From NCBI GenBank assembly GCA_004764695.1, contig SMSO01000032.1, positions 6,666,483 through 6,730,482 on the forward strand: a stretch of 64,000 nt of DNA, given 5' to 3'. Numbering within the stretch: the stretch's first letter is position 1; each line of letters starts with the position of its first letter. Both the position numbers and the translations under genes were made by a program. The DNA is from Schizochytrium sp. TIO01 (taxonomy: Eukaryota > Protista > Bigyra: Labyrinthulomycetes). Of this stretch, positions 4,979-28,153 are shown piece by piece. Under the pieces are notes generated by a model. That model was given only the letters and a program-made list of their open reading frames with translations. It did not search any database and was not told the origin of the DNA.

Positions 4979-5795
4979 CTTCCCCTTGCTAGGTTTGATC
5001 AATATCCAATGGTCAAGACCTTTTCTTTGAAAGCTTCACGTTCCTAATTTGGCAGACTTCTTTCCAGGATTACAGATCTCGATGTATTTCTGTTCTGTAG
5101 GTTTTGGGGCATCAAAGAACTTCTCAACACGTACTAGTGGCTACACAATGAGCTACAACCTGCAGTCCAACAGGTCAGATCCTCCACTCGCTTCTTGACC
5201 TTTGGCCAACTGTCAGGAGGCCTTTAGCAAGCCTTTAGATCCTCCCACAGTAATCTCAGCCTTCGCAGTTGTCCTCGCAGGCTTGCACGGCGACTGCGAA
5301 GTTTGAGTTAGAGTTTTGATATCTTTATTTCTTCAAGTTATCTATCTTGCTTTATAGTTACAAGAACAAGTTTAAACGAAGAAAACAAAAAACAGTAACT
5401 GAGCACGCATTTCATGCAGTCCTTGAGTTCAGATGGACGATCTTGATACTCCAAGAAAAAAGGTGGAATTTAAAGGGCTTAAACAAGAAGTGTTCCCTTG
5501 TTTGCGTGTCTTTGAATTGAAGCATGTCTTGTTGAACAGAGTAGGTACCAACAGCCTATCTCCCTGCGACTACAGCATTATATAAATTTAACTTTTTTTT
5601 TTTTTTAGTAATAAAAGAAAAAGGCGCAAATCGAAGCGCCACCGCGAATATCAACATTTTTATAGAACAGCAAAGCGGAATCTCTGTGGAGACGTTTTTG
5701 CTTGTAGCCTCTACCTCTGCCGCACTACGTGTGCCTCCACCTCAAACTCCGCATCTGCGTATTTCCCCAGACCTCGTGCAGCGTTGCTGGCGATC

Positions 5796-7958: not shown

Positions 7959-7984
7959 ACTTTATTATGCTAGACACTAACTTA

Positions 7985-8875
7985 TTAATATGAGATTCCG
8001 TCATTATCATAGATTGCGAGGTAATCTTTGAGGATAAAGAAAATACATTCAGCAGTAAATGTCTGGTAGAACATGTCAAAGTTGTTTTCTTGCTTATCAA
8101 AGTATGTATTGAAAAGCCTTCGCCAGGATTCGCTAGGAGGTAACTTTGTTGTAACATCTTTCTGATCCATCAATTCGTAACCTTTAATGCGGGCAAGGAT
8201 TTCGTGGAAGTTGCCTAATTTTTTTGATTCAATGTCTTCAATGACTGCGTCGATCTATTCGTCGAAGTCACCACCATAGGCTACGCGAATGATATTTTTC
8301 AAAAAGTCATCAAATTGTTCGTGACGAGTGCCAAACTCATTCGTGTTGGATGGCATGGTTTGCTGTCTCAAAGTTGTAGCAATGTGATCTGGTGGTGCGT
8401 GAAGTGGTAGAATGGAAGTACATTTGGAAAGGGATTTGAAGCAACTATTAATCATGCAATAAGCGTGGGCTGCGAACTTCAAGTTTAATCCTGTTTCATT
8501 AACAATGAGGGAACTATCAATATTTGGAAGTCCTAATTTCTCTTTTGTGTGGTCTTTTGTGATTGCCCAAAATACAATCATAGCCTCAATGTGTTGTAGC
8601 TCGCTTAGAATGGATTGGATACTAACATTTGTTGGCATTCTTCCGTCATCAGAAAATGTGTAAAATGTGATATTGAGGATTTCCCAAAATTCTGCGGCTG
8701 TTAAATCCTGGAGAATAATTTGTGAAAACTGATTTGGAAAGTATTGTTTGGGTAGAAAGCTTCTCAATGCATGTAGGTACCATTTTTGTGAGCATGTAAG
8801 GTGAACGTCCTGTTTCCTTTCAGCATACCAGTTCCAGATTTCATGAGAGAAGACAATGTCATTGACAATTAGCAT
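7985..8875 (-). pseudogene. Hypothetical viral protein (~296 codons) interrupted by one in-frame TAG
   Basis: ORFs 8255..8875 and 7985..8173 share a frame. Reading through the TAG at 8255-8257 gives ...GGDFDE*IDAVIEDIESKKLGNFHEILARIKGYELMDQK... Confidence 0.75.
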
Positions 8876-8969
8876 TTATTTTTTTAGCTGGTTGAAATTG
8901 TTTGCACCAATGTTATTTTGCGCTGGCAATATATAGTAAAAGCAATGAGATTACTTATTGTTAGATAGA

Positions 8970-11969
8970 ATGATCCGGTGTTTGCTTTTTGTTTTGATTG
9001 TTGGATTTGTTGATGCGAGCACTTATAGCAATGGTGTGACTACAGATACAATTCGAGCGGTCAGAATTATACCCAACAGCAGCTACTCTTCGTTGGTTCC
9101 GAGTGATGAGATTATGGCCGATATAGGCAGCGATTTGAGTACGTTCTATGACTCAAGTTCTGGTGGTAGTTTTGATGTTCACTTATTGGTTGATGAGACT
9201 ACCTATGTGATGGAATCTTTTAGCATTGATGAATCAGATAATTGTTACATCAATGGAGTAGAGGTGACTTCGAGTAGCATGCTTGTTTATGAAGAAGCTT
9301 TTGCTCTCGCGGAAGATAGTGCAAATGCGTCTACATATGACTCTGTTGCTCTGTTCACCCCTTATTGTAACCTGGGGTATGTTGGAGTTGCTTATGTTGT
9401 TGGTTCTCGGTTACATATGAACGTTGCTGCAAGTTCAGTGAATTCAACCGCTTATCTCATGGGAGTTTTAGCGCATGAATTTGGTCACAATCTTGGTTTG
9501 CTGCATGCTCATGCTATTGATGGAGAATATGGTAATGAATATGATGAGATGGGTTCAAAGGCTGAGCCGCTGTTAGCTCAATTTAGTACCTACTACAAGT
9601 ACTTTTTGGGGTGGATTCCGGAAGAGAGTATTTTGCAAATGTCACATGGTTTGTATTGCGAAGCGGACGAGTCTTGTGTAAGTGATGATACAACTGTGTG
9701 GCTCTACGCTCACGATACAGGAGAGGGGTTTAATTCATCTCTGTACTACTGTATTCTTTATCGGTTGGAGTATCCAAATACATACATGACGTTGGAATTC
9801 CGATCACTCTATGAGAGTGATCTTCCAGGCGTGATGATGGAATGGGTAACAAGGCGTTATGAAGATATTGCAGGTCCTAGTTACTTGATCGATCCAACTG
9901 GCTTGCCCAGATTGGTGACTGATACAACTGGAGCTGCTTTTGTCCCTGTAAATTCTACCTATGTGTATGATTATCGCGAGGGGGGGAATGCAGTTGCGGT
10001 GACTGTCTTAGAACTTGATGAGGATACTCAGCGCGTGAAAGTCAGAGTAAGGCATATGAATAAAAGTGCCAATGATGTAGATGAATTTGAGAATGAACTG
10101 CAAAATTTGGCTTCTATTTCTTGTGGCGACACAGTGAATTATACAGAAGCGGTGGGGCGTACATTGTTTCATTTGGAAACTCCCAACCCTTCAAAGGTTT
10201 CTTTGAATGTAACTTGTGGTGACTACCTAGACGCTTACATTTTTGGAGGCAAACCATTTCATCTATTCAGTGATAGGCAAGGTGAATTTAACCTTGCCAC
10301 ATTTAATTCGACTAGCTTGTATGATTGGAATCGGGCATTTGATGTTTCCGGTGTTGAATACTGTTCTGCGGATGCTTGCAATGTTGCTTTAACGGTTTCT
10401 CCATTTCTAAGTTATGCGGGCGAGATGATCTTTTATGCTGTTCCTGGAGTCTCAAGTGGACCCGCTGGGACTGTTTATGTGAATGACCAATATGAAGTGT
10501 ACCTTAAATCAGTGTACATGGGGTACTATGGGATTTATTATTATTGCTGGGTCTTTTGCACCAGTTTGGCATGCGGTTCGTTTTACGGATTGGTCGGTTC
10601 GACCACACTCATTTATCTATCCGAACTGACGGAGGACGATATTGCTTTTACTTATCCTATTACCACCAGTTCTTCGCGAAGTTGGACCTCCGCTTGCACT
10701 TCCGAAAGCCGGACTGCAGATTTACAAAATGCTTATGCATACCCTACCCGATACTTTACTGAAAATTTTGAGGTACACACCTTTGCCAATGACAGTAACT
10801 ATCTTCTCATTACGGGCGGTGTAGATGGTGCTACTGCGGAAGTTGTTTGTGATGTGATTTACTGTGGTAGTAATATGTTCATGAATGAATCGAGTGGTCT
10901 TTGCGAACCATGTGGTCAAGGTATGATGTCGGAACCGAACAGCACTAGCTGTGTTGTGGATTGTTCTTATCTAATGCTGGAATCTCCATACGTGAGTTCA
11001 ACTGGAGTGATGAAAACGACGGGTAAATATGTAGATTTAAAGGATTCTTGGGAGTTATATTCTAATGGTGGACGGGATACGAGTTATTTACTATACTTCC
11101 TTAATACTCAGGGGTGGGTTCTTGGGACTGGTTCTGTTGCTTCTGCAGCCTATTCTTATGAGGTGAGTGCGAGCAATTACCGACATCCAGTGCTCGGTGA
11201 ATCTGGAGTTGAATCTGGATATTCCTTGACATGTATGTGTGCAGATTTCCCTTTTTGTGGAGAATGCGATGGTCTTGGCGATGGTGCAATGGTAAGTCCT
11301 CTCGATGGTACCTCTTGTTTTGTTCCGTACGAATCTATCTACGTAACATCTAACGAAAATCATAGTATAGCAGGGAATTATAACTTCAGCACTATGACAG
11401 ATGGTTATCCAGTCTTTAGCTCTGCGAATTATACTCTGACTCGTGATTACTCTGGTGAGTGGTCGTTCGTTGCTCTTGTTAACTCCTCGACTGTGGCTAC
11501 GAAGTCAGAAAGCATTAGCGTCTTTTGGCCAACGAATATTAGCAGTACAACGGCGTGGTCAACTGGTTATCTTTCTATTGCTCCACAAGAGAACTCTCTT
11601 GTCATGCAGGACATCTATTCTTCAACATTTTTTGCTATAACTCCTGCACCAACATCGTCACCTACTATGCCGACGCCTTTACCAACATCGTCACCTACAG
11701 TTTCACCCACGGCTCCAACTCCTGCACCAACAATGAGACCTACGCTTGGAAATCCTTCTTCAGCACCTACGATTTCAGATGATACTAGTCTTTCTTACTT
11801 AAAGGAACTGTTTGAACAAATTGGTTCAAATCATATTTATCTAGGTCTCACAGTCGGTGCACTTTCTTTGCTCTGTTTTATGGTGATTTATCGTTTTGTT
11901 TATTATAATAGGTCTCATCAGATTGCAACACAGTATAATTTCGCGAATCAAATTGATGACTTTTCATAA
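8970..11969 (+). CDS. Type I membrane zinc metalloprotease, M11 (gametolysin)-like, with Cys-rich region and Pro/Thr stalk
   Basis: Signal peptide from ATG 8970, HEFGHNLGLLH zinc motif followed by EYGNEYDEMG and KYFLGWI, Cys-rich CEPCGQG...TSC, PTSSPT repeats, and a C-terminal hydrophobic helix. Confidence 0.85.
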   Translation: MIRCLLFVLIVGFVDASTYSNGVTTDTIRAVRIIPNSSYSSLVPSDEIMADIGSDLSTFYDSSSGGSFDVHLLVDETTYVMESFSIDESDNCYINGVEVTSSSMLVYEEAFALAEDSANASTYDSVALFTPYCNLGYVGVAYVVGSRLHMNVAASSVNSTAYLMGVLAHEFGHNLGLLHAHAIDGEYGNEYDEMGSKAEPLLAQFSTYYKYFLGWIPEESILQMSHGLYCEADESCVSDDTTVWLYAHDTGEGFNSSLYYCILYRLEYPNTYMTLEFRSLYESDLPGVMMEWVTRRYEDIAGPSYLIDPTGLPRLVTDTTGAAFVPVNSTYVYDYREGGNAVAVTVLELDEDTQRVKVRVRHMNKSANDVDEFENELQNLASISCGDTVNYTEAVGRTLFHLETPNPSKVSLNVTCGDYLDAYIFGGKPFHLFSDRQGEFNLATFNSTSLYDWNRAFDVSGVEYCSADACNVALTVSPFLSYAGEMIFYAVPGVSSGPAGTVYVNDQYEVYLKSVYMGYYGIYYYCWVFCTSLACGSFYGLVGSTTLIYLSELTEDDIAFTYPITTSSSRSWTSACTSESRTADLQNAYAYPTRYFTENFEVHTFANDSNYLLITGGVDGATAEVVCDVIYCGSNMFMNESSGLCEPCGQGMMSEPNSTSCVVDCSYLMLESPYVSSTGVMKTTGKYVDLKDSWELYSNGGRDTSYLLYFLNTQGWVLGTGSVASAAYSYEVSASNYRHPVLGESGVESGYSLTCMCADFPFCGECDGLGDGAMVSPLDGTSCFVPYESIYVTSNENHSIAGNYNFSTMTDGYPVFSSANYTLTRDYSGEWSFVALVNSSTVATKSESISVFWPTNISSTTAWSTGYLSIAPQENSLVMQDIYSSTFFAITPAPTSSPTMPTPLPTSSPTVSPTAPTPAPTMRPTLGNPSSAPTISDDTSLSYLKELFEQIGSNHIYLGLTVGALSLLCFMVIYRFVYYNRSHQIATQYNFANQIDDFS

Positions 11970-11993
11970 ATGTTTTATTTTTAATTGAGGTTT

Positions 11994-14132
11994 TCATTTT
12001 GGAGTTGTTCTTTCCCTCTCCAACGCAAGTCGAAGTCTAGCAATCTCTCGACTAGCGCTTAGTGCGAAGTCTTCCTCACTCATTTCTGACTTGCCAACGG
12101 ACATGCCGAAGTCGATGATGACAGGCCTTTGAGTTTCCTTGTTGTATAGGATATTACGGGTCGCCACATCACCATGCAGTACACCATGGGAGTGAATGTC
12201 ATCGAGAGCATCCACTGCCTTTTCCACAAAGTCATCGGTGATGTCTTCAGGTCTTAAAGGTTCGCCAGAATACTTTGTTCCGAGGCCGTAAAGAAATCTT
12301 TCATCGAAAACGCCACAATCGATGAACACTGGGATGTGTATTCCTTGCAGCGGTTCTAATTGCTTGTAAATTTCAGCTTCATTGTCAAGTTCGTGCATCT
12401 GATCTGCTTGCTTAACAAGGTCCAATACCTTCACCACGTTGTCGCTCTTATCATCTCCTGCTTCGTGGAAGTTCAAACGAAATACTGACCCTGTGCGACC
12501 GGGTGAAAGCGCGGTGCACCCAGCCTTGCGTAGCTTGACTAGTTCGACCGCTTCACCATCCTTTGTATATTTTGCACCATACTTATTTAGTGTCGAAGAA
12601 GGTGGTCGTCCATTTGGTGACGAAGTCCGTGGTGATACATTTTTCGGCCTCTTTTCGTCCAGTGCGCTATCACATTCACGTGGTAGATTTTTCCTACCAA
12701 TCGGATCATTCGATTTGCAGGGAACCATCATAGAATCTCCATAACCTTGGAAATCCATAACTCGTTCATCAGCAGCGAGAAGAATAGCGAGTGCAACGAG
12801 CTGCAACGTACTGATTTTCTTATTTTCAGTATCACCCTCTTGATCCCATAAAATAGCTTCCGTGATAAGCAGATGTCCCCGCCCGTCTCTAATGAAAACA
12901 TGAGTGTGTATATAGTTCGTGTAAATACCAACCAAAACCTCATTCGAAACCATGTAGTTGTAAAGTTGACGAATGACCGAATGGTCTTCATGCCGCTGTG
13001 AACCACAGAGAGGATTTAGGCATTCTTTATTACAATAATCATTAGCGAGTTTAGTAGTGGTGGGAAACCCAGGACCTTTGAATTCGCCCATGATCAACGG
13101 TTTGCGGTTACCGTCTTCTGACTTACAATTGATAGCAAAGTCTGCGCGACCTACTAGTCCTCCAGTCACAAGGTTTCCATACAAAGAGAGATCTTGAGGA
13201 ATGGAATTGTTTTCAGCGGACGTCTGATTGAGTGCACGTGTTAGACAATGGATGGCATTTCTAAACGCATTGTCGACTGAACTTTCATTGTTAAGTTTTA
13301 CGTTGAGACTATAACATGCAAATTCATTGACAAAGTCGACTGTAGTCTCGACGTTATTCAGGATATCAATGTAGCCATGGTCTTCACAATAGTTCCAGAA
13401 ATCTAATGTATAAAAATTTTCCACCTGCAAGGGTGATACAGGGTATGACATTAAGTTCGCAAGACTTGTCTTGTTTGCGGTTAATTCACCCTCCTGTTGC
13501 CAGTTTGGTAGATGTACTTTGGTGGCATCCATCATCTTCTTCGGTTCCGGAGATGACTGTAACCGTTCTCTTAGCGTTGAGATGTCTTTATCGGTAGAGG
13601 TTATAATATCATGCACTTTTGCAAGGCGGACCTTATCTGTAAGAATTTCTTGCTTGGTCACTTCTAACGACTTTTCTTTTTTGAGAAGGTCTTTCATCGA
13701 ATCAATGCAAAGGGCCATGGACTTGTGACTGGGTAAAACCCCGAAATGCTCTTCGAAATCTATTGCAGTAAACATATCACGACAAAAAGCTCTAAGAAAG
13801 TCGTAGTCATCATCATTTCCTAGCTTTTTTATTATTCGCTGCTCGAGTCGCTCGATATCTCGCGAAAGCTTGGCTTTTTCATCCTTGAGGTCCTCAAGTG
13901 CTCGATCCATACGCTTGTACTCCTCAATCTTTTCTGCATTCAAAGTTAAAGACCGTTGCAAGAGGGATTCATCATCTCCTGGGAGTGTGCTTACGCGCCT
14001 GAAAGTGGTGCGTATGTTTGGACTGTTTGTGAACATCTGAATTGATGAGGGGCGAGATTCACGTCTACTAGCGGCACTCCTTGCGAAATTGGAGGCTGCA
14101 TTTCTAACTCCCCTGATAGTAGCACCTATCAT
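11994..14132 (-). CDS. Coiled-coil + PD-(D/E)xK nuclease + kinase protein, copy 1 (Spok/Crinkler REase-kinase architecture)
   Basis: Nuclease motifs NESSV, GRADF, GEFK and RQLYNYM...GIYTNY. Kinase motifs GRTGSVF, VVK, NEAEIY, HGDVATRN and DFG. Heptad-rich N-terminal region. Confidence 0.8.
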   Translation of the reverse strand: MIGATIRGVRNAASNFARSAASRRESRPSSIQMFTNSPNIRTTFRRVSTLPGDDESLLQRSLTLNAEKIEEYKRMDRALEDLKDEKAKLSRDIERLEQRIIKKLGNDDDYDFLRAFCRDMFTAIDFEEHFGVLPSHKSMALCIDSMKDLLKKEKSLEVTKQEILTDKVRLAKVHDIITSTDKDISTLRERLQSSPEPKKMMDATKVHLPNWQQEGELTANKTSLANLMSYPVSPLQVENFYTLDFWNYCEDHGYIDILNNVETTVDFVNEFACYSLNVKLNNESSVDNAFRNAIHCLTRALNQTSAENNSIPQDLSLYGNLVTGGLVGRADFAINCKSEDGNRKPLIMGEFKGPGFPTTTKLANDYCNKECLNPLCGSQRHEDHSVIRQLYNYMVSNEVLVGIYTNYIHTHVFIRDGRGHLLITEAILWDQEGDTENKKISTLQLVALAILLAADERVMDFQGYGDSMMVPCKSNDPIGRKNLPRECDSALDEKRPKNVSPRTSSPNGRPPSSTLNKYGAKYTKDGEAVELVKLRKAGCTALSPGRTGSVFRLNFHEAGDDKSDNVVKVLDLVKQADQMHELDNEAEIYKQLEPLQGIHIPVFIDCGVFDERFLYGLGTKYSGEPLRPEDITDDFVEKAVDALDDIHSHGVLHGDVATRNILYNKETQRPVIIDFGMSVGKSEMSEEDFALSASREIARLRLALERERTTPK

Positions 14133-14806
14133 GGTGTTCGTTCGAACGATTGGGTTTTGCTGCTCTTGAGAACTAGGTTTGGATGCTTCCTCTATTGTTT
14201 ATACTTGATTTACTAATGAATGGTACTAGTAGATATTCTTACTTATTTATTTGTTTCTTACACACAAACCCATGTCTTCTTCTACACTGCACGAGGGATA
14301 AATTATAAAACAACCTCTGAATATCATTACGATCTATATAGGTGAAATAATATGCTAAGTATTCTTTTTTTTAAATTACTAGCTAGTATTTTGCGAAACC
14401 CATAATAATCCGCGAATTAAAGTCTGCAGTGCTCGTTTGCATAACTTTGATGCCGTGGCTGGTGGCGTGGCCGCAGCGTCCACGAATCTATTTCTCTCCT
14501 CGCACGCGCCGTATGCCGTGTGCGCGCACGCACACGCGCTCATTCTACCCATCTCTCCCTCCACTGTTCGATCACGCAAGTCAAACGTTGTGATGATTCG
14601 ATGCAAGTGGGTAAGATCGATGCCCCCGCTCGCCAAGGCCAAGGACAACTTTCCATGCATCGTTTGACTGCGTAAGTCGAAAGTTGTGCAGGTTGTGCTG
14701 GCTCGTGCCGGTAGGTAGGAGAAGAGAAGATCGGTCATCGACCTCGATCAAGCGTAAGTCGCGAGTTGTGCAGGCAGTGCTAAGCAGGAGAGGAGAATTG
14801 AAGATC
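14133..14806. repeat. Duplicated upstream non-coding region, copy 1 (homologous to 22842-23552)
   Basis: Long exact blocks are shared with copy 2, e.g. TTCGAACGATTGGGTTTTGCTGCTCTTGAGAACTAGG...TTCTTACACAC. Internal CGYAAGTC...GTTGTG motifs lie at 14575, 14671 and 14753. Confidence 0.95.
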
Positions 14807-14859
14807 TTTTCCGTAGGATTCGCATTTGTTGGACGTGTGAAAAGAGAGAGGAGCGTCAT

Positions 14860-15324
14860 ATGAGACTAGAAAATGAGTGGAACGAGCGTTTTCATTCTTG
14901 GGGATTTCACCCTTCGAGCCATGATCGCATCATCAAAGATAGTGCATGTAAGGTAGTAAACCGTCGGCGTGCTGACTTTGTTTTTTCAGATAATGACTTA
15001 CCCTATTATATTGTGGTCGAATGCGATGAAGAAAGTCACAGTGGTTATGACATAGCATGTGAAATGAAAAGATTGCAGGAAATTCATGATCAGTTAATTG
15101 GTAATGGAAGAAGTGTGAAGCCTTTGGTGATTATCCGTTTCAACCCGAACTCTCGACATGAAAGCCTGGAAAAGGAAGTTAAAGGAGCCCTAGAAGATGC
15201 ACTCAAAGGGCAAGTGGACTACTCTGATGCGCGTGGAGTCAATTTATTTAAAGTGATAGGTTATGGACAAACGCGGCAAGAAAAATACAGAGAGGAGCGT
15301 CTTACCTATCGCTTAAAAATTTGA
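14860..15324 (+). CDS. Giant-virus-type PD-(D/E)xK (VSR-like) endonuclease, probably 5'-truncated
   Basis: RADF...IVVECDEESH..Y...CEMKRL...PLVIIRFNP matches the pattern of NCLDV restriction-like endonucleases. The frame stays open upstream with a CWTC at 14827 but has no ATG before TAA 14755. Confidence 0.75.
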   Translation: MRLENEWNERFHSWGFHPSSHDRIIKDSACKVVNRRRADFVFSDNDLPYYIVVECDEESHSGYDIACEMKRLQEIHDQLIGNGRSVKPLVIIRFNPNSRHESLEKEVKGALEDALKGQVDYSDARGVNLFKVIGYGQTRQEKYREERLTYRLKI

Positions 15325-16043
15325 CTCGATTCCACCAAAGCATATCCACACTAAAAGCAACTTGGAGGTCAGTGACAAAAGGTTGTACCATCCATCCATA
15401 GTAAGCACAGCACTTCCTCGTCAGTTAACATGCGTTCTTCCCTCACCACATAGATATACTGTACTAACGCAAAGCATGAAAACATGAAGAATTCAATGAA
15501 AAAAATAGCAATGACAAAGTGTGGTACGTCATGGTTGATTTCTGCAAAGAAAGACCAACTGATAATAACCCATGCGAAAAGGTAAGGAATGCAACCGAGC
15601 CAGAATGGTTTGATCATCAATCTCGATTTATCACCTGTAAAAGGGAGGATGTCTTCTAGATACCCAAAGACCATTGTTGTCATCATGAGACCGGCAATGC
15701 CTGTGAGAGTGAAAATGTCATCTATTCTGCATAAGATTGCAATAATGACGGCCATGATCGATGCAGTGATGGAGTACTCTAAAAAGCGCATGGAACCGAT
15801 GTTTCCAATGCGAATAAGATATGCGTAGAAGCAGTGAAACGCGGCCGTAATTCCTGAAAAGAGGGCAAGTCCGCTGAAGACTGAAGGCGTCCACCATGTG
15901 GTATCTATGTCACCTAATGTTAAGACCACTCTCCCTTTGTTTGGATCCACTGAGAGAACAACCATAGCAATGGTAGACGCAAGGTGCAAAAGTGCACAAA
16001 CAATGTTGAACTGCCATGTTGAACAATAGGAAATGATACTCAT
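15313..16043 (-). pseudogene. Heliorhodopsin, frameshifted by a 5-bp duplication before TM7
   Basis: Motifs NIVCALLH, TAAFH, RFLEYSITASIM, MVFGYLED, PFWLG...AW and PHFVIAI. Removing one AGCAC of the tandem pair at 15404-15413 restores WYNLLSLTSKLLLVWICFGG, with the retinal Lys codon at 15361-15363, giving 241 aa. Confidence 0.9.
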
Positions 16044-16104
16044 AGACTAGTCATTATATGTATAAAGTGAATCTGAATTATAATAATAGTAGCTGGCTTA
16101 CATC

Positions 16105-19100: not shown

Positions 19101-20637
19101 TACTTTATTCGGTCTTAGAGGTATAACATCTAGCATGGTTTACGATGCCATTCTTAAGCAGGCAGATAAGGTTGCGGATTTTTCAAGGAAGTTCTTCAAC
19201 TTGGAATATGGTACTCACTTCTTCAGAGACAACGAAAGGTCAGCTAAATTTTTCTTGTTGGAACTCATAGATGCTTATCCTAACATGTATCTTCCATACT
19301 TTACTACACATGATATGTTTAGGAGTATCATGACTGCTGAATCGCTCTCTTTTAATGAAAAGCTAATGGATATAGAGAGGATCAGTAATATCATCGACAT
19401 ATTTTACACATACAAGGAAATCTTGAATTCAGCCAACTCATCAATTGATGATCTTATTTCTAAATTAGACGGTAGCACTTTTGATAGGTTGATCCTCCTG
19501 CATGGACTAAAAAAATTTAAAACGTATGATGACGGCGATCGTGCAGATCTAATACACAATCTACCAAACTTATTAAAGGGTGATTATTTTATGTTGTCTT
19601 TGCAGCGCGAATTGGCTCGTCGACTAAATCTTCTAAGGAACGAACCTTTTCTCGGTACCGAGATTGCTTCAACGGATCATCACTCATATCGCTATGATGT
19701 TCTTCCGCACTTTCACTCTTTGCCTGAGCAGAAGAATATGCACAAAAGAATATCGCACCTGTACTTAAGAGAACAAACAGAACATTCATACACAGCTCCT
19801 CACAAAGATCCTGATTCACGAAGTAGAGGATCAGTAGGAGAAAGGGAATTTCAATCAAAGGAAGGAGTAGAAGAAGAGGAAGGGTCAGAAGAAGGGTTGG
19901 AAAAGACAGTGCAGGGTAAAGCATATAGAGATGAATACAGAAAAGTAAACAATAAACAAAAAGGTACAAACAAAGGCCCTGTGTTAGACTTAGACGTGAT
20001 TGTTGAGCAGAACTATCCGCCATCTTTATTCAAAAGGATTCAGAAGGATATTTATCGATGGAATTTGATACTTCGTGTAGCTGATGGAGAAGACTTTTTA
20101 AATAATAATGAGTCTCTTGTTGAAAGCGATTTGGATGAATCATCAGATGAAGAAGAACAACCGTTTGACCACGCCATTGCAAATCGTAGTACTTTATTTT
20201 TGAGTGAAAATGAGGGGCATCATTCTGCAGAATCTCAAGAAGAAGAGGATTCTGAAGAAGAAGAAGAGGATTCTGAAGAAGAGGATTCTGAAGAAGAGGA
20301 TTCTGAAGAAGAGGATTCTGAAGAAGAATCTGAAGAAGAAGAGGATTCTGAAGAAGAAGAGGATTCTGAAGAAGAATCTGAAGAAGAAGAGGATTCTGAA
20401 GAAGAAGAAGAAGAATCTGAAGAAGAAGAAGAGGATTCACAAGAAGAATCTGAAGAAGAAGAGGATTCACAAGAAGAAGAATCTGAAGAAGAAGAGGATT
20501 CACAAGAAGAATCTGAAGAAGAAGAGGATTCACAAGAAGAATCTGAAGAAGAAGAGGATTCACAAGAAGAAGAATCTGAAGAAGAAGAGGATTCTGAAGA
20601 AGAATCTGAAGAAGAAGAGGATTCACAAGAAGAATAA
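16105..20637 (+). CDS. 1510-aa viral-type protein with CE-clan-like cysteine protease domain and acidic C-terminal repeat
   Basis: HANLLILD...HFEPHG (His at 16831), GPQ and DGFCFAW (Cys at 17212) give a His-Glu-Gln-Cys order like Ulp1-type proteases. The remainder is unrecognised. Confidence 0.65.
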   Translation: MSEAVYEDVLRRAVRLRDENPQFKRQLNRIILHITNSMSYAEVLEQNAKLDEFDHQVEDGTNEGSKTVQDAENTLPESPQLLAQTSGDGKKRGRSIVKKEDKELNASLTRESEQYLKELLTTKGFHKLKSFGPAMLESFGFDDGNYLGYSSADARVYEIVHILEDIINKTSPDQEHVSIHIETNITYHVTTQRFHNLDDTVNFIYNILVEDPDEARYYSLPIVLDNFEDDSSEEDDQEEDDLHANLLILDLKEHSVIHFEPHGRGTRLYDVEVFTARMRELVERSFRKFNKQEKTKYFLLVVGSGAEAEENSEKDGIPWRFLTNLSQSFGRIGPQSSSGRWYRQNVNLRVTKRTSDLETLWTQRLTDGFCFAWCLLVTYVVLAPVDYTDAKSKVGFKGEFGEASADGTTLRDRFDITAESFDPTLLFDRFVNFHNCSGEFMGQTMLRFASFIAKCDKTLIRELAIFGDQIEIDEGDSRTLSEELIPVRLTSLMSPYFEHVEILSTRISMTPGNIVIPPNVINLLSHHADSGDSSNSPGSLSGYAQMVIVIVQRDNALLYLMLSPRKRQYCIQFTSDSLLQRIPIDESLDREIENYGKGTWKKQLLNTKQLVPTSSIVDGFALNYESSALSTLERQFLTILLQVWLFCVVHILNPQVDGGDLFEMVKLKDAILDDSDFAVVKFKLIRKDAQNRRLNWTKLALLNRFRLYLLDGLELEYWQSIKRYSIDIIPESYKEAIDESLNSSEFIEELDGEIIPTILSQLDTEDPEDMQWLSSMTKLRDLGIMYKLCEGYSEVNENNADEVLALFDQILNYKYMKVQEVIPKLLNNLDNEAIRSMDESSVSSSVYFKVVVHYLKVFMPGAPLDTIAGLILCASLLKHIPHFWMIVAKSYMECIDMVSTNDFTNGFEQLCIASQMTISLKMFPRKTFIMKKVNFRTFRKMFDESIQQKEVIQFQEIFQSLEADLEPLSWVMKQVPPEQFPDVILAIFDNDSIPPSSKSTLFGLRGITSSMVYDAILKQADKVADFSRKFFNLEYGTHFFRDNERSAKFFLLELIDAYPNMYLPYFTTHDMFRSIMTAESLSFNEKLMDIERISNIIDIFYTYKEILNSANSSIDDLISKLDGSTFDRLILLHGLKKFKTYDDGDRADLIHNLPNLLKGDYFMLSLQRELARRLNLLRNEPFLGTEIASTDHHSYRYDVLPHFHSLPEQKNMHKRISHLYLREQTEHSYTAPHKDPDSRSRGSVGEREFQSKEGVEEEEGSEEGLEKTVQGKAYRDEYRKVNNKQKGTNKGPVLDLDVIVEQNYPPSLFKRIQKDIYRWNLILRVADGEDFLNNNESLVESDLDESSDEEEQPFDHAIANRSTLFLSENEGHHSAESQEEEDSEEEEEDSEEEDSEEEDSEEEDSEEESEEEEDSEEEEDSEEESEEEEDSEEEEEESEEEEEDSQEESEEEEDSQEEESEEEEDSQEESEEEEDSQEESEEEEDSQEEESEEEEDSEEESEEEEDSQEE
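20230..20634 (+). repeat. Coding minisatellite (GAAGAAGAGGATTCT/GAATCT variants) encoding EEEEDS/ES repeats
   Basis: Directly visible purine-rich tandem array. Confidence 0.95.
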
Positions 20638-20729
20638 TTTAAAGAAGAACCTGAAGGAGAATCATAGTATAATTTCGTAAATGATAACTTTTCCTTTTTT
20701 AAAGAAGAAATACAACAACTGTAAATGTT

Positions 20730-22841
20730 TTAGTTTTTTACTCCTCTTACTTTGCCCAACGAATGTCGAAGTTCATTAATCTCTTGATCGGCAGCTCTTG
20801 CGAAGTATTCATCACTCATTTCCATCTTGCGAACGGCTATGCCGAAGTCAACTATGACAGGCCTTTGAGTTTCCTTATTGTATAGGACATTGCGGGCATC
20901 CACATCACCGTGCAATACACCTTGGGAATGAATTTCATCGAGAGCAATCACTGCCTTTTCCACAAAGTCATCAGTGATGTCTTCAGGTGTTAAAGGTTCG
21001 CCAGAATATTTTGTCCCAAGACCGTACAGAACATCGCATTCAAAAAGGCCATAATCGATAAATTCAGGGATGTGTTCGCCTTGTAGCGATTTTAACTGTT
21101 TGTAAATTTCAGCTTCATTTTCAAGCTCTGGTATCTGTTCTTCTTGCTTAAAGCAATCCAGTATCTTCAAAACGCTGTCGATCTTCTCACCTGTTGGTAG
21201 GGGGATACCAATCCGAAGTGTCCTACCCGTGCGACCGGGTGGGAGTTCAGTGTACCCATCAAGTTTTAATAAAGGTAAATGAATCGACGCCCCATCTTTG
21301 CGGAAATGTTTAGGGTCCTCGGAATTTTGATTTTCGTGCTTCTCTATCTTCGCGTCATTACTGGCTTTACACACTGCAGGTAGAACGACGCGTTCTGGAG
21401 TCTGCCCCGGGCCGCCTAAACAGGGAACCAAGATGCTATTTTCAATTTCACTGAAGTTCATCTCGCTTGTATCCGCTGCGAGCAAGATAGCAAGTGCGAT
21501 AAGTTGCATCGAACTGAGTTTGCCGCGAGCGATATCACCAACATCTTCAGCCCGAACAGACTTTGTGATCATTAGATTTCCTTCACAGTCCCTGATAAGA
21601 ACACAAGTCACTTTGTAGTTCGAGTAGACGCCAACCAGTAGACCATTCAAAAACATGTAGTTGTATAGTTGACGAACAACTGAATGCTTTTTATGACGGT
21701 CTGAATCACATCCAGGACAGTCATGATCACAATAAGTCTCACTGAGGTTGTCGTAGGAGTACTTCTCACCAGGACCTTTCAACTCACCTACGATCAACGG
21801 AATATGGGTACCATCTACTGTCTTAGCAGCAAAAGAAAAGTCTGCTTTACCCTCTATTCCTTTCGGGTCAGCCGTATAGATGGAGACCTCATAAGGGACT
21901 TTTTCGTTGGATTCTTCGGTCATGGCTTCTGTTACAAGAAACATAACCTGATCAAATGCTGTCGTGACAGTTGCTTCGTTTGAGAATGTTTTTTTATTAC
22001 TCATCCTTTCAAAGACATCTTCGAAGTTGACGGTAGATTGCAGTTCATTCAGAATATCAATGTACCCTTTCTCGTTACTGTAGTGCACGAAAGACTCCAC
22101 TAACAAAGGTCTGACCTTCGCAGGCGAAGCGGGGTAATTTTCGAGGTTCGAGATATCTGTCTTGCTTGTTCGTATTTTGGGTGAATCCTGAACATTTGGT
22201 AGACGATGACTGGTGACCGACAGAAAATTTTGCGGTTCCGTACGAGAAATCAAATCACTTAACCTCCTCACTTCAGCTTGGTGATCATCGATTATGTCCT
22301 GCGTTTTTGCAAGGCGTTGTTCTTTGGCAACAATGTGTTGCTCTTTCAGTCTTAAATCCTCTTCTTTTTGGAGAATTTTTTTGAAGAAAGGATATAATTG
22401 ACGAATACTTTTATCTATATCTTTTGGTAAACAATCGAAACGATCTTCAAAATCTTCGTCCGTTACGGTCTCGTCTTTCTTGTTCCAAAATGCATGCAGA
22501 AAGTCGTAGTCGTCCTCATCTCGTAGCTTTTCTTTAATTTTTTTCTCGATTTGCTCGATTTCTTGCGAAAGCTTGTCTTTTTCATCCTCGAGGTCAGCAA
22601 TGGATTCTAACGCGTCATCGTACTCCTCAGTCTTTTTTGCATGCAAAGTTCTAGCGTCGGCCAAGAGGGAAGCTAATTCCTGATTCAAGACTACGTGTTT
22701 CATAGGAGTGGGTCTGTCTGAATCGGTTGTGAACATCTGAATTGATGAGAGGCGGGGTTCTCGTCTTCTAGCGGCACTCCTTGTCTGGTTGGTGATCTTG
22801 GAGGCTGCATTTTTTAATCCCTTGATAGTAGCACCTATCAT
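20730..22841 (-). CDS. Coiled-coil + PD-(D/E)xK nuclease + kinase protein, copy 2
   Basis: Nuclease motifs NEATV, GKADF, GELK and RQLYNYM...GVYSNY. Kinase motifs GRTG, VLK, NEAEIY, HGDVDARN and DFG. Paralog of 11994-14132. Confidence 0.8.
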   Translation of the reverse strand: MIGATIKGLKNAASKITNQTRSAARRREPRLSSIQMFTTDSDRPTPMKHVVLNQELASLLADARTLHAKKTEEYDDALESIADLEDEKDKLSQEIEQIEKKIKEKLRDEDDYDFLHAFWNKKDETVTDEDFEDRFDCLPKDIDKSIRQLYPFFKKILQKEEDLRLKEQHIVAKEQRLAKTQDIIDDHQAEVRRLSDLISRTEPQNFLSVTSHRLPNVQDSPKIRTSKTDISNLENYPASPAKVRPLLVESFVHYSNEKGYIDILNELQSTVNFEDVFERMSNKKTFSNEATVTTAFDQVMFLVTEAMTEESNEKVPYEVSIYTADPKGIEGKADFSFAAKTVDGTHIPLIVGELKGPGEKYSYDNLSETYCDHDCPGCDSDRHKKHSVVRQLYNYMFLNGLLVGVYSNYKVTCVLIRDCEGNLMITKSVRAEDVGDIARGKLSSMQLIALAILLAADTSEMNFSEIENSILVPCLGGPGQTPERVVLPAVCKASNDAKIEKHENQNSEDPKHFRKDGASIHLPLLKLDGYTELPPGRTGRTLRIGIPLPTGEKIDSVLKILDCFKQEEQIPELENEAEIYKQLKSLQGEHIPEFIDYGLFECDVLYGLGTKYSGEPLTPEDITDDFVEKAVIALDEIHSQGVLHGDVDARNVLYNKETQRPVIVDFGIAVRKMEMSDEYFARAADQEINELRHSLGKVRGVKN

Positions 22842-23710
22842 GGTGTTCGAACGATTTTTGAGGTGTTCGAACGATTGGGTTTTGCTGCTCTTGAGAACTA
22901 GGTTTGGATGCTTCCTCTATTGTTTATACTTGATTTACTAATGAATGGTACTAGTAGATATTCTTACTTATTTATTTGTTTCTTACACACCCTCAAATCA
23001 AACCCATGTCTTCTTCTAATGACTCATACACTGCACGAGGGATAAACTATAAAACAAGCTCTGAATATCATTACGATCTATATAGGCGCAATAGTATGCT
23101 AAGTATTCTTTAAAAAAAAATTACTACTCAAGAATAAAATGTAGTTATCTTTCATAGTGCTAGTATTTTGCGAAACCCATAATCCGCGAATTAAAGTCTG
23201 CTTTGTTGCATAACTTTGATGCCGTGGCTGGTGGCGTGGCCGTGGCGTCTACGAATCTATTTCTCTCCTCGCACGCGCCGTTTGCCTTGTGTGCGCACGC
23301 ACACGCGCTCATTCCACCCATCTCTCCCTCCACGCAAGTCAAACGTTGTGATGAATCGATGCAAGTGGGTAAGATCGATACCCTCGCTCGCCAAGGCCAA
23401 GGACAACTTTCCATGCATCGTTTGATTGCGTAAGTCGAAGGTTGTGCTGGCTCGTGCCGGTAGGTAGGAGAAGAGAAGATCGGTCCTCTCAGTAGACCTT
23501 GATCAAGCGATTTGTGCAGGCAGTGCTAGGCAGGAGAGGACAATTGAAGATCGGTCGTTTGATTGAGCAGTGTTGTGTAAAGAACGATTTTCGCCAGTGG
23601 TAGAGGTTTGACTACTCATCTTTTGATCACCGTAAGTTGAGAGTAGTTGTGCAGTTATAGAAAGATGGATACCCTCGCCCACCAAGGACAACCTTTGATC
23701 AATCGTTTGT
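22842..23710. repeat. Duplicated upstream non-coding region, copy 2 (longer)
   Basis: Aligns with copy 1 up to GAAGATC at 23552, then continues with further degenerate sub-repeats (CGTAAGTTGA at 23631; GATACCCTCGC...CCAAGGACAAC). Confidence 0.9.
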
Positions 23711-23728
23711 TTTATTTCAAAAGCTGTA

Positions 23729-24688
23729 CTATTCAGAGTTTATATTCATGAGTCCTCTACCAAACGCACACTGATTCGGTGCTTCTTTTTGAAGCTTATA
23801 TCTATACTTTACATAATAATCAATGTCATTCCAACACTCAGGCTCCACTGTGCTCATAAGTAGGTACTCTTGAATGTCAGAAGCCCAGGGGGGGATGTCC
23901 AAAACATGTGAGACAATAAAGGCTCTCTGTGTGATATCTTTCATTTTAATTTTATCCCTTAGCCATCTGTCAAATCCGCGCTTGTCACCAGTCTTTAGTA
24001 TGCCATATGCAAAATTTCTCAGGCCTGATACGGAATCAAAATGCCCCTTTTCACACATTAAATTAGCTCTCCAAGGTCCAACATATCTGATACAAGTGAG
24101 ACACTCATCTACAATCGTTTCTTCGTTCTCAAGATCATCAAGTTCCTTAAGCAGATCGCGCTTCGGTGCAATCCATTCTTTATAGATGTTTTCCAAAGCG
24201 AGAACGTCTGCATCAGCTCGGTGCGCATTCTCAATAGGTTTGCCAAACATGACCTCATGAACATCCCCCAATCTAAATGATTTCATATTGGGGTAATTTT
24301 TCCTTAACCAAGGTAAAGAGTCCCAAAATTTAATTTGTTGAGGAACAACACCATTCAACTCTTTGAGGAGAATTAATTGATCAAAATATGTGTTATTGTG
24401 AGCAATCATTTCCACATAATCGAAATCCTCGACGTGGAACTCCTTAAACATTTTAGCAACGGCCTGTTCGATGGTGGGTGCATCTTTGATGTCTTGGTCA
24501 TGAATGTTGTGAATCAATGAAGAATTAGGAGGAATTCCTCCCTTAAAACCGGGATTGACGAATGATGTAAAAATGGGTCCATCTACAATTTTTGCGCATA
24601 TTTGTAGAATTTTATGATTTTTACTAAACATTGGCATGTTCCGAAAACCGGTCGTTTCCAAATCGTATATAATATGAAGAACTTTCAT
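23729..24688 (-). CDS. DEDDh 3'-5' exonuclease (DnaQ/TREX-like)
   Basis: ExoI YDLETTG, ExoII AHNNTYFD, DSL, and ExoIII AHRADADV. Likely ATG at 24688. Confidence 0.9.
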   Translation of the reverse strand: MKVLHIIYDLETTGFRNMPMFSKNHKILQICAKIVDGPIFTSFVNPGFKGGIPPNSSLIHNIHDQDIKDAPTIEQAVAKMFKEFHVEDFDYVEMIAHNNTYFDQLILLKELNGVVPQQIKFWDSLPWLRKNYPNMKSFRLGDVHEVMFGKPIENAHRADADVLALENIYKEWIAPKRDLLKELDDLENEETIVDECLTCIRYVGPWRANLMCEKGHFDSVSGLRNFAYGILKTGDKRGFDRWLRDKIKMKDITQRAFIVSHVLDIPPWASDIQEYLLMSTVEPECWNDIDYYVKYRYKLQKEAPNQCAFGRGLMNINSE

Positions 24689-24789
24689 GTTTTTAATAGC
24701 GGCCGCTTGTCGTTTCGAGTTTGCATTATATTTTTTATTTTTTTTTGTTTCTGTTGAGCGGAGGAGGGTTCTTGGATTAAGCTCTCCAA

Positions 24790-25817
24790 ATGTATGTTTC
24801 AACCGCTTATTGTCTCGTATTCACAGCACTAATCTGTATCCTTGGACCTGCTTTAGGATCAGATGTCTCTGTGACGACATCCGATGGGATAACTGAAGAA
24901 ACAGGTGTAGAGGTGGTCGGCAATGAAATAGTTTCATGCAATCTAAACACTGACACTGGTAATATGCTGTGTGCGAATAGAGGTTATGATACTATCATCC
25001 AATATCACAACGTTAGGCAGTTAATGATGTGTGAATATCACTACTGCGTAACCTTCACAGACGATGAAGATGTGTTGACTTGCTCCGGCTATGTGTATAA
25101 ATCTAACGCTGTAGGTAGCTCCAAATTTTATAACCCATTGACTCCATGGGTTTCTGATTCCGATTCTAGCACTCGCTCCGATGGTACTGTTGTTGAATTA
25201 GGTACTCCATTTAATGGTTATAACATACTAGTCGATCTTTTTGAAAATGCAGTGCATAGTGAATTTTCTACAGAAGTGAGTAACATTTCATGTTTCGAGA
25301 AGTATTCAACATGTGTGACCTTTAGCAACGGGTCGGAAACCTGCTTCGGACCTTTAGAGATCACTTTCCTCAATTGGGTCCAGTCCAGCCTTGTTGGAGT
25401 TGCAATGATGGGCTCTATTGCCTTCTTCTTTTATTCCTTTGGTGGTATTTGTATATCTGAGAGGTTAGTGAAGAACCCTTGTGCTATTGTGGTGTTGATT
25501 CCATCTCTAGTTTGTTGCTGTTCATTTCTTATACTTTTCGTTGGAGAGTCTGTGATAGTGCAGGTCTCCAGTTTTATTCTGTTTCAACTTACGGGATCGC
25601 ATTAGCATATCTGTTAGCATCGCCGTTCGTATCAATCGTGGGCAAATTAAGAAAAGCAAGGATGGCGAGGAGAATGGACTATGAAAGTGAAGCTACTAGT
25701 TTTCCACTCGATCAGGAACAAAGTGACAATCGCTACCAAAGGTCAACTTCACTTGATGTTGAACAACATGAAAACACAACCATTGAATTGAAAGGTGTTG
25801 CAATTGGAACGATTTAA
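24790..25817 (+). pseudogene. Signal peptide + Cys-rich ectodomain + 3-TM membrane protein, split by a 1-nt frameshift
   Basis: Adding one G to GGG at 25593-25595 joins ORFs 24790..25605 and 25479..25817 (FQLTGIALAYLLASPF), giving 342 aa. May be an assembly error. Confidence 0.7.
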
Positions 25818-25830
25818 CTCAACATTTTTA

Positions 25831-26369
25831 TTATTTGTTATCATCTGACGCTTTTGTTGTCCTTTGTTGTTGAAGGTCTACATATTTCATGATACTTGCG
25901 ACGTGCGTATCTGTGTGATATGCAATATCAACAATACTGAAGTCTGATTTTGTTTGAATTGAGATTTGGTAAACGCAGAGTGCCATCCGCGTGTTAGGAT
26001 TCATTGATGGGTATTTACTGCACGCCTTCTTGTACAGTAATTTCAGTTCACCATTGTACCTGTAGGGAAGTTTCATGCAGGAAATTAAAAAGGGTATGGA
26101 CGAGGTGATCATTATGAAAGAATTGATTCCTAAAATTTTAGAAACTTCTTTCAATACATGATCAACTTTAAGACCCTATCAACGAGTATTTGATAGTTTT
26201 TGGTGACTCTTTTCGATGAAGAACTGACGGCAGGCTGGTTGCTGTAATCGATATCTGCAAAAGTGTCTCTATAAGTTTTCACAATGCCACAGACTGTACA
26301 AACGAGATTTGCTTCCTTGTGGTCGAAAACGTAGCGAATGCTTTTACAGTTCACACACGGGGCGTTCAT
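25831..26369 (-). pseudogene. TFIIB-like factor (Zn ribbon + short cyclin-like core), split by a 1-nt frameshift
   Basis: CVNC...DHKEANLVCTVCGIV is a TFIIB zinc ribbon. Adding one base to the CCC run at 26174-26176 gives DRGLKVDHVLKEVSKILG and a 179-aa protein. Confidence 0.75.
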
Positions 26370-26429
26370 GATTATTTTTAGTATTAGGGTTTTGCTTAAG
26401 TGAGCTTTTTTTTTATTTTTTATTTTTTT

Positions 26430-26984
26430 TTAATGTTCTTTCCCTGTAGGTGTTGTACTCCTAAAGTCATTTATAAGAGTTATTAATCCGCGAATAACAT
26501 TTTCTACCATTTCATCGCTGTTACATCCCGCAACAACCACAGCGCCGCTATTTAAAAAGTTCGCTTTAATTTTGGTGTTTGGGATTGTGTACGTGCAAGA
26601 AGGAAAGAGCTGCATGTCACAGGAACAATTCCTTTGATCCCATTCATACAAGTTATCAACTTGACGTGTGTTTTGAGAGAATGTAACTACCACGTTTGTA
26701 AGTTTAATGTTGATATCCAAGGACAGTTGCTTTTTAATTTTGTGGAGTACAAAGAGTGCACCCCACATTGAGCTACATCCCATGATTGTGATATTTCCGG
26801 TTGAAAATATAATGATCGTCGCAGCCAGGTTTTTGTGTTTAAGGGTGAGTGCACTAAAAGAACAAGGCGTGTGTTTGCCATAGCCGAGTGGCGCAAAGGT
26901 TTCTTTGATGCACCGCCGGCCGTATGTCTTTACTGTAATAACATGATTGGTATTCCTGAAAGATATCTTTGCACAAGTCGACAT
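26430..26984 (-). CDS. TBP: Divergent TATA-binding protein (viral type)
   Basis: Two TBP repeats: TNHVIT...FSALTL...IIIFSTGNITIMG and TNVVVT...LFPSCTY...ANFLNSGAVVVAG. Likely ATG at 26984. Confidence 0.85.
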   Translation of the reverse strand: MSTCAKISFRNTNHVITVKTYGRRCIKETFAPLGYGKHTPCSFSALTLKHKNLAATIIIFSTGNITIMGCSSMWGALFVLHKIKKQLSLDINIKLTNVVVTFSQNTRQVDNLYEWDQRNCSCDMQLFPSCTYTIPNTKIKANFLNSGAVVVAGCNSDEMVENVIRGLITLINDFRSTTPTGKEH

Positions 26985-27058
26985 GTTGTATTTTGTTGAC
27001 TTAGGAAAGGTGTGAGTATATATGGAAAACGAAGCATACATTTTCAATGAGAGCATAA

Positions 27059-27525
27059 ATAAGTGACAATCATGATCAGAGAGAAATCCACGATGTGAGC
27101 GACGCGGAAGACTTAAGGGAATACTTGAAAGGTTTAAAATTGACTGACGGCAAAAGTAATAGAGTCATTTCAGATGTTCATGCAATCGATACTCTCGCCT
27201 TTATTATAACCAAAGAAGAATTGTATAATGAGTACATTGAATAGCTTCTTGATGTTTGTACACCCGCTCAGATTACTATGTTGATCAAGGCTCTTACAAT
27301 TAATCCATCAAAAAGAGGTTCAGCAAATTTCTTAGACACGAAGAAACTACGTACACACGTAACTAGACTTGCTTATTCGATTCGGTATCTAGCGCTTTTG
27401 AGACGTTTACTTGAGATTGGCAAACGTCATTGTTTTCGAATTTTGATTATTTGAGATGTAGTCAAACATCATTTCAAGGGAAGAAGTACAAGGCTAAAAT
27501 ACTTATTTCTCGAGTTAAAACCTAG
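27059..27525 (+). pseudogene. Decayed hypothetical ORF at the right edge of the viral block
   Basis: A frame from ATA 27059 to TGA 27454 has a single internal TAG (27242), and a second frame continues to TAG 27525. Protein-like composition but no recognised family. Confidence 0.45.
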
Positions 27526-27793: not shown

Positions 27794-28153
27794 TTATGTA
27801 GTCAGTTTGAGAAAAAGCAGAGTTCCAGCAATTGCAAGCCAGACAACCCAGAACAGCATGCACTGGCAAACATTAGGATCTATTACTTCTGCATTCTTTC
27901 TTCGCAATGATGGCTGTGATTGGACTTTGTGAGGTTCTCCTCCGTCTTCCTCTATGCCTGCGAGTGATGGTTCATTTGAAATTGCTAGAAGAGCTTTAGT
28001 CGATGAAATCGAATCTGGATCTGTGTTGTCTGGTGTCACTTTTGCTTCTTCTCCCTTTGGGGTTCTTGGGACCAGCGGATTGGCCACAGATAGAGAGGAA
28101 TGCATGTCCTCCATTTCGAGCTCGTCGAGCTTAGTAAACTCCTTTAGCGTCAT
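27794..28153 (-). CDS. Small tail-anchored membrane protein, unknown function (probably host)
   Basis: ATG at 28153 in ATCATG context, hydrophilic body, and a single C-terminal hydrophobic helix MLFWVVWLAIAGTLLFL. Confidence 0.6.
   Translation of the reverse strand: MTLKEFTKLDELEMEDMHSSLSVANPLVPRTPKGEEAKVTPDNTDPDSISSTKALLAISNEPSLAGIEEDGGEPHKVQSQPSLRRKNAEVIDPNVCQCMLFWVVWLAIAGTLLFLKLTT

Follow-up and report, generated by a model that had tools for sequence, protein, structure and literature searches.

A block of 19.3 kb with 12 tightly packed genes lies between host genes in the genome of Schizochytrium sp. TIO01. With a probability of roughly 0.8, we regard it as a randomly cut piece of a mirusvirus that was poor in introns and distinct from both AurliV-1 and AurliV-2. 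The piece was likely taken up between two host genes, where the DNA had a staggered break, and is now decaying. The block was analyzed within a window of 64,000 nucleotides (GenBank assembly GCA_004764695.1, contig SMSO01000032.1, positions 6,666,483 to 6,730,482 of the forward strand), and all positions below are those of the window. Four flank proteins are 98.9 to 100% identical to named cluster members. Three of these clusters carry the taxon label of the AurliV-1 TBP transcript cluster, 87120, which formally denotes a fungus and is likely a transposition of 87102, Aurantiochytrium limacinum; the host is thus probably A. limacinum or a very close relative. Among 10 block proteins, one has an exact sequence match in the protein collection.

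Extent and composition of the insert

The insert spans positions 7988 to 27298, flanked by SDE2 on the left and an RCC1-like gene on the right (Pfam), in agreement with the original prediction of a position between host genes. The ends given there, 7960 and 27525, were corrected to these values by contigs that cross the junctions. Both ends lie inside viral genes, since a longer copy of the sequence, found in public sequencing runs, continues past each of them and extends the terminal reading frames.

As predicted, the block is AT richer than its surroundings. Its GC content equals 40.8%, versus 47.4% in the left flank and 44.5% in the right flank, and all 12 block genes have a lower GC content than all seven flanking host open reading frames (ORFs) (Mann-Whitney P = 4e-5). 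The coding density is 0.89. The anticipated head-to-head pairs at about 60 to 100 bp were also recovered, with four gaps of 94, 61, 101, and 75 bp, whereas host intergenic gaps measure 273 to 926 bp. The flanking host genes encode SNAP, BEACH, SDE2, RCC1-like, RING, and fatty-acid hydroxylase proteins by Pfam. The block genes indeed lack introns, but this feature is not discriminating, because the adjacent host genes are likewise single long ORFs. Similarly, the proposed internal chromosomal site agrees with the absence of telomere repeats from the 64-kb window, which has no Rfam match either, but host DNA on the left amounts to only 8 kb.

On the host side, the stretch that separates the RCC1-like gene from the right junction includes a 119-aa ORF (27794 to 28153), which lacks a Pfam match and has a hydrophobic segment at its C terminus. 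Positions 36500 to 64000 contain 23 arrays of 4- to 5-bp microsatellites (none in 1 to 36500) and almost no long ORFs, in contrast to the compact single-ORF genes to their left.

Junctions and integration

Public sequencing data were screened for the insertion. Among 24 listed runs, 20 runs that stem from 10 studies contain at least half of the sampled words of positions 5000 to 12000, and one of them may be the source of the window. Junctions and copies were compared in contigs of runs X1, X3, X15, and X19 for the left part and of runs X1, X3, X7, and X12 for the right end. The right junction, between 27298 and 27299, is bridged in all four runs by contigs with 67 to 274 viral-side bases and 0 to 7 differences. 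The left junction, between 7987 and 7988 and 29 bp past the SDE2 stop, is bridged in one of four runs, by an X15 contig (5000 to 8269) that extends 282 bases past it. In two more runs (X1 and X3), the contigs of the flank reach as far as 8017, 30 bases beyond the junction and one short of the bridging criterion, while an X19 contig stops at 7983 and X3 has a loose end before 7988. The integration, as originally claimed, is real. No empty-site allele was seen in the run contigs, which drop rare variants.

The insert is bordered by a direct repeat, ATTAAT, at 7984 to 7989 on the left and 27299 to 27304 on the right. The last two bases of the left copy are common to the viral sequence, and the arrangement equals either a 4-bp duplication or a 6-bp duplication with two bases shared with the virus. 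In 20,000 draws of random junctions from the same surroundings, a repeat of at least 6 bp within 2 bases of the junctions occurred in 0.8%; a 4-bp repeat at the exact junctions occurred in 0.7% of 20,000 draws. When 3 bases of slack were allowed, the frequency was 1.7%. The ATTAAT motif is frequent in the AT-rich window, with 20 copies in 64 kb. No terminal repeats were found, and alignments of the terminal 300 bases score at shuffle level. Retroviral-style TG...CA ends were rejected, as the right end fits and the left is one base off.

In line with the original prediction, neither an integrase nor a virion gene was recognized in the block (Pfam and NCBIfam). A complete giant endogenous viral element would be defined by inverted repeats at its termini and a full set of hallmark genes; the block has no such repeats, and no hallmark gene for replication or the capsid was found in it (Pfam). 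The notion of a recent integration holds only loosely, as the insertion is common to runs of several studies and six of the 12 genes carry lesions.

For the route of entry, we lean slightly toward nuclear viral DNA, from a persistent infection or a larger integrant, as the source of a broken, internal piece in linear form. Either the end-joining machinery of the host or a trans-acting integrase would then have inserted this piece where the host DNA had a staggered break, 29 bp past the stop codon of SDE2. Joining at such a staggered cut would leave the 4- to 6-bp ATTAAT duplication with 2 bp of microhomology.

Gene content and decay

The left terminal gene (7988 to 8875, minus strand) is of virus type with no assigned function. 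Its 3' end is cut at the junction, and it contains an in-frame stop at 8255 to 8257. A homologue in an environmental contig, L002, aligns from 8875 to 8015 across this stop at 28% identity (tblastn E value, 1e-19). It is followed by an intact gene (8970 to 11969, plus strand) for a 999-aa zinc metalloprotease, secreted or membrane bound, with a match to Pfam Reprolysin_4 (E value, 5.7e-8) and a metzincin-type HExxH motif at residue 169.

A likely endonuclease gene (14806 to 15324, plus strand; ATG ORF, 14860 to 15324) shows a PD-(D/E)xK-like motif by eye and no Pfam match at the cutoff; its 5' part has been replaced by a kinase cassette, discussed below. The adjacent heliorhodopsin gene (15311 to 16043, minus strand; PF18761, E value, 3e-27; NF038020) is frameshifted by a 5-bp tandem duplication (15404 to 15413) upstream of the helix-G lysine. 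This duplication is missing from the contigs of three of four runs, the fourth having no coverage there. An intact gene (16105 to 20637, plus strand) encodes a 1510-aa protein with an acidic repeat tail. Its N-terminal His/Glu/Cys motifs (243 to 373) seem, by eye, to resemble those of clan CE cysteine proteases. The protein has no Pfam, NCBIfam, or PDB match, and its single-sequence structure model is unusable (pLDDT, 34.7). The tail (20190 to 20637) is an array of 12- to 18-bp repeats coding for Glu/Asp/Ser runs. The endonuclease and the 1510-aa protein may resemble giant-virus families.

In the right part of the block, a DEDDh 3'-5' exonuclease gene (23729 to 24688, minus strand; PF00929, E value, 1e-16) is intact. 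Besides its own near-identical record, the protein has 52 relatives, of which the best is environmental (50% identity) and a Hondaea protein reaches 37%; the family is common to AurliV-2 and Hondaea viral DNA. The gene for a Cys-rich membrane protein (24790 to 25829, plus strand), homologous to AurliV-2 ORF 674 (by eye) and to a gene of L002 (tblastn E value, 1e-10), has a 1-bp frameshift near 25581 in the window, and the contigs of all four runs have one base more. TFIIB (25831 to 26371, minus strand; PF08271, E value, 2.4e-7) is split over two frames by an internal deletion near 26170, at which contigs of X1, X7, and X12 have loose ends. The TATA-binding protein (TBP) gene (26430 to 26984, minus strand; PF00352), which could also begin further upstream at an ATG at 27056, is intact and of viral type according to the trees and AU tests described below. 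Head-to-head with TBP lies a remnant gene (27060 to 27298, plus strand) with an internal stop at 27242 to 27244, cut at the right junction and continued by a longer copy in X1 and X3. It has a weak match (E value, 0.003) to the gene at the same position in a second environmental contig, L001, while a tblastn search of the divergent gene of L001 against the window gave no match. The role of TBP and TFIIB in the donor virus would be to bring an RNA polymerase to the viral promoters.

Altogether, six of the 12 genes are intact (the metalloprotease, both kinases, the 1510-aa protein, the exonuclease, and TBP). The other six are broken (the two terminal genes, each cut and with an internal stop, the endonuclease, heliorhodopsin, the membrane protein, and TFIIB), which bears out the predicted decay. 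The heliorhodopsin and membrane-protein frameshifts are not present in the run contigs. Such frameshifts may be private to the window, assembly errors, or masked by other copies. The gene list of the original prediction stood for the five families above Pfam cutoffs, namely, TBP, the TFIIB zinc ribbon, heliorhodopsin, the DEDDh exonuclease, and one M12B-like metalloprotease, but the endonuclease and the second protease are motif assignments by eye. The list was also incomplete, having missed two kinase genes (11994 to 14132 and 20730 to 22841) with duplicated upstream DNA. By itself, the piece would make no virus and is a relic, because no polymerase, capsid, or packaging gene was recognized in it.

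Kinase cassettes

Both kinase genes are on the minus strand. Cassette 1 (11931 to 14806) contains the gene of a 712-aa kinase (Pkinase E value, 1e-7) and approximately 670 bp of upstream DNA. Cassette 2 (20668 to 23630, ends approximate) contains the gene of a 703-aa kinase and its upstream DNA. One kinase scores just above the Pkinase cutoff and the other just below it, and by eye the layout is coiled-coil, nuclease-like, and kinase. The two proteins are 45% identical overall. The cassettes share 79% identity over 1102 bp, with upstream blocks at 93 to 100%. This upstream DNA (14140 to 14806 and 22865 to 23552) is far more conserved than the middle of the coding regions, and reads show more members of the kinase family elsewhere. 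The cassette is possibly a mobile or recombining unit. No homologues of kinase 1 were found at an E value of ≤0.001 among 7994 candidates of 391 to 1246 aa.

Upstream of 14806, other copies in X1 and X3 diverge from the window; by eye, the DNA that they carry there prolongs the endonuclease frame and adds a cysteine knuckle to it. Cassette 1 therefore likely arrived after the endonuclease gene was in place. More generally, both cassettes are rather probably later insertions that would have entered after the viral gene layout, one of them cutting the endonuclease gene. In thraustochytrids, multi-copy kinases are described as moving between host, mirusvirus, and skiavirus (10.64898/2026.07.28.741200).

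Longer copies in public sequencing runs

The picture of a single fragment needs qualification, as near-identical longer copies are present in all four runs compared at the right end. At 27025 to 27235, each of these runs has one contig with 0 to 2 differences from the window and another with 14 to 17. The other copy leaves the window sequence before 7988 (X3) and beyond 27298 (X1 and X3), and by eye its letters extend the frames of both terminal genes. Contig depth, which is not copy number, rises at approximately 8017 in X1 and X3 and drops after approximately 27300 in X1, X3, X7, and X12. Differences between the window and the run contigs are distributed patchily, with 34 in 970 bases (25186 to 26154, X3) versus 3 in 2373 bases (15023 to 17400, X1); this pattern may stem from gene conversion among the copies or from more than one donor strain. 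Further loose contig ends at 25215 (three of four runs), 26387, 13102, and 24857 are exit points of other partial copies and candidate insertion junctions.

These copies bear on an alternative that we rate as a serious though minority possibility, in which the block arose by duplication of part of a larger viral region integrated elsewhere in the host genome, rather than by capture from free virus, and the copies would keep exchanging sequence. The second copy occurs in four of four runs, at nearly equal contig depth in X7 (34 versus 33) and X12 (101 versus 106), and its divergence varies from place to place, with as few as 3 differences in 2373 bases and as many as 14 to 17 in 209 to 272. Loose ends at 25215 (three of four runs), 26387, and 13102 suggest several partial copies. 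In addition, a table for AurliV-2 lists "two host genes" resembling the membrane protein (PMC12606086), which may be copies of the block. However, depth ratios at the same place vary by run (41 versus 91 in X1; 646 versus 403 in X3), contig depth not being copy number, and the 6 to 7% divergence seen at the right end exceeds what a recent duplication would suggest. Such an origin would alter only the route of the fragment, not its viral nature.

A bolder and unlikely proposal assigns the longer copies to a third mirusvirus that still resides in A. limacinum, either as a low-copy episome or as a large unrecognized integrant. It would shed fragments into interstitial sites through a staggered-cut integrase acting in trans, with heliorhodopsin and exonuclease transcribed in ordinary cultures. 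Contigs of X19 cover the endonuclease-heliorhodopsin pair, kinase 2, and the exonuclease; X15 and X19 are RNA by guess, and level, strand, and copy are not readable from them. Scans of viral contig collections with TBP, the TBP alignment, the exonuclease, and a 22-base motif of the other copy gave no match.

Gene order and related environmental loci

In AurliV-2, the membrane-protein gene is head-to-head with the exonuclease gene, followed by TFIIB, and TBP lies approximately 2.5 kb away. The exonuclease/membrane-protein/TFIIB/TBP neighborhood of the block thus recurs in AurliV-2 and in an environmental contig. L002 contains five homologues of block genes (four by tblastn; TFIIB E value, 0.002), and in L001 a TFIIB-like ORF directly follows TBP. 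In three of five TBP loci (L002, L003, and L004), TBP is adjoined by a terminase-like gene, with matches below the Pfam cutoffs (PF02499, E values of 3e-4 to 5e-4; PF03237, E value of 1e-3). This order ties the block to mirusviruses. L002, L003, and L004 are environmental contigs in which the block-type TBP family stands beside full-length terminase-like genes, and they are likely pieces of mirusvirus genomes. L002 measures 20.5 kb, has a GC content of 0.68, and also carries TFIIB, an exonuclease, a PIF1 helicase, and a topoisomerase-like gene.

The same loci weigh against a nucleocytovirus donor, for instance a skiavirus (SmDNAV-like), carrying acquired mirusvirus genes, an origin that we regard as improbable. 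The presumed likeness of the endonuclease and the large protein to giant-virus families would fit such a donor. Moreover, skiaviruses are described as persisting in thraustochytrids and as trading genes, multi-copy kinases among them, both with the host and with mirusviruses (10.64898/2026.07.28.741200). However, the four-gene neighborhood is common to AurliV-2, the relatives lie beside terminase-like genes, and no MCP, A32, or VLTF3 match was obtained in the block (Pfam), itself a partial piece.

TBP phylogeny and donor lineage

A homologue search with the block TBP returned 35 relatives with 43 to 62% identity, and a profile search over 1.84 billion representatives returned 26 at an E value of ≤1e-30. 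When compared by eye to the published sequences, the profile set includes P0098, which is the TBP of AurliV-2, and P0119, which is a C-terminal portion of that of AurliV-1; the weakest of the 26 matches is one canonical eukaryotic TBP. A tree of 83 rows (23 of the 35 first matches and the top part of the profile list) and a second tree of 38 rows were built. The viral TBP family is split from canonical TBP by a branch with 100% support, and a clade of the block TBP with canonical TBP is rejected (p-AU = 0.005). The predicted mirusvirus-type origin is thereby supported by a TBP of the AurliV family, its separation from cellular TBP, and the common gene neighborhood, and the donor was very probably a mirusvirus. 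TBP and heliorhodopsin, core accessory genes of Mirusviricota, are both in the block. No HK97 capsid, triplex, portal, or terminase gene was found (Pfam and NCBIfam) in the fragment, which is well under one-tenth of a 300-kb genome.

The position of TBP outside the canonical TBPs, together with a GC content and gene spacing unlike those of the host, also makes it very unlikely that the block is a cluster of ordinary host genes. An assembly chimera is equally hard to sustain: some window frameshifts are missing from the run contigs and one run may be the source of the window, but the junctions are present in contigs of several studies.

Within the viral family, the block TBP is 37% identical to that of AurliV-1, 41% to that of AurliV-2, and 51 to 62% to the top 27 environmental rows, whereas the TBPs of AurliV-1 and AurliV-2 are 61% identical to each other. 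A clade of the block TBP with AurliV is rejected (p-AU = 0.003), for a grouping that was named after the first tree and in which the AurliV-1 row is a partial protein. Instead, the block TBP groups with environmental sequences at moderate support (SH-aLRT, 81 to 90), and no starred clade contains it. In an exonuclease tree (41 of 53 matches), the block exonuclease has no settled position, and the exonuclease identities (best match environmental; Hondaea, 37%) agree with the TBP picture. An origin of the block from AurliV-1 or AurliV-2 is extremely unlikely: host and gene families are the same and the GC content is near that of AurliV-2 (41.6%), but the TBP identities and the AU test contradict it, and, by eye, the block proteins clearly differ from the heliorhodopsin published for AurliV-1 and the exonuclease published for AurliV-2.

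Neither near identity to AurliV-1 or AurliV-2 (family Sopora_03) nor one clade with them was found, and the donor, as far as these sequences tell, differs from both published A. limacinum mirusviruses. An AurliV-type TBP and the common gene order, a proxy for Soporavirales that is not formally defining, are both present. We somewhat favor a donor from Soporavirales outside Sopora_03, the named Soporavirales TBPs in the comparison being those of AurliV-1 and AurliV-2. A Demutovirales donor was considered less likely, given that the TBP is a member of the AurliV-type family; one survey reports no endogenous Demutovirales (10.1101/2025.04.19.649669).

Relation to known viral elements

AurliV-2 (LE-Chr15), an integrated Soporavirales mirusvirus of A. 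limacinum, resembles the block in its host, its integrated state, its GC content (approximately 41% versus 45% in the host), and its TBP family (10.1101/2023.06.15.545109; PMC12606086). It also shares the membrane-protein gene head-to-head with the exonuclease gene, the adjacent TFIIB, and the nearby TBP (PMC12606086). It differs in size, at approximately 270 to 300 kb with a virion module versus 19 kb, and in location, as AurliV-2 is placed between rDNA/LORE-TEAR arrays at a chromosome end, whereas the block lies between single-copy genes and is cut mid-gene (10.1101/2023.06.15.545109). Moreover, AurliV-2 is scored as intron rich (PMC12768974), whereas the block is intron poor, with a TBP only 41% identical. 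The AurliV-1 episome and the intron-poor mirusviruses of Sopora_01 and Sopora_02 carry TBP and heliorhodopsin, as the block does (PMC12768974), although the AurliV-1 TBP is only 37% identical to that of the block. The same source describes TBP and heliorhodopsin as core mirusvirus functions, assigns AurliV-1 and AurliV-2 to the intron-rich family Sopora_03, other Soporavirales being intron poor, and lists 11 genomes for the intron-poor Sopora_01, with GC contents of 30 to 50% and including an episome from a thraustochytrid culture (PMC12768974). Collier et al. report that the TBPs of AurliV fall outside those mirusvirus TBPs that were available in 2023 and that A. limacinum contains two viral elements and one pseudogenized viral polymerase on another contig (10.1101/2023.06.15.545109).

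Beyond mirusviruses, giant endogenous viral element relics in Chlamydomonas are likewise flanked by a 6-bp duplication and have no matching integrase in the element. In contrast to the block, which ends inside genes without terminal repeats, they are nucleocytoviruses ending at terminal inverted repeats (10.1101/2024.09.03.611062). The giant-virus fragments of Acanthamoeba, attributed to "scattershot integration," are similarly small, degraded, and dispersed, but have nucleocytovirus donors; for the block, the donor is likely a mirusvirus and the junctions are placed to the base (PMC12210455).

That mirusvirus regions can be endogenous is well documented (PMC10827195), and a genome-wide catalogue could include the region studied here (10.1101/2025.04.19.649669). 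Our literature search, with subscription papers outside its scope, returned no description of the block or of a third A. limacinum mirusvirus. A. limacinum is a laboratory model for mirusviruses, with two viral elements described so far, and a further virus lineage likely infected this host. This third lineage, to which the block points, has environmental sequences as its nearest relatives in the present comparison and would thereby be tied to a cultured host. Mirusvirus DNA also enters sites other than rDNA-flanked chromosome ends, the search places recommended in a recent review (PMC12911909), and the base-exact junctions make the integration route testable. Finally, reads or primers for viral-type TBP, exonuclease, and heliorhodopsin in A. 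limacinum may stem from chromosomal pieces rather than from AurliV-1 or AurliV-2.
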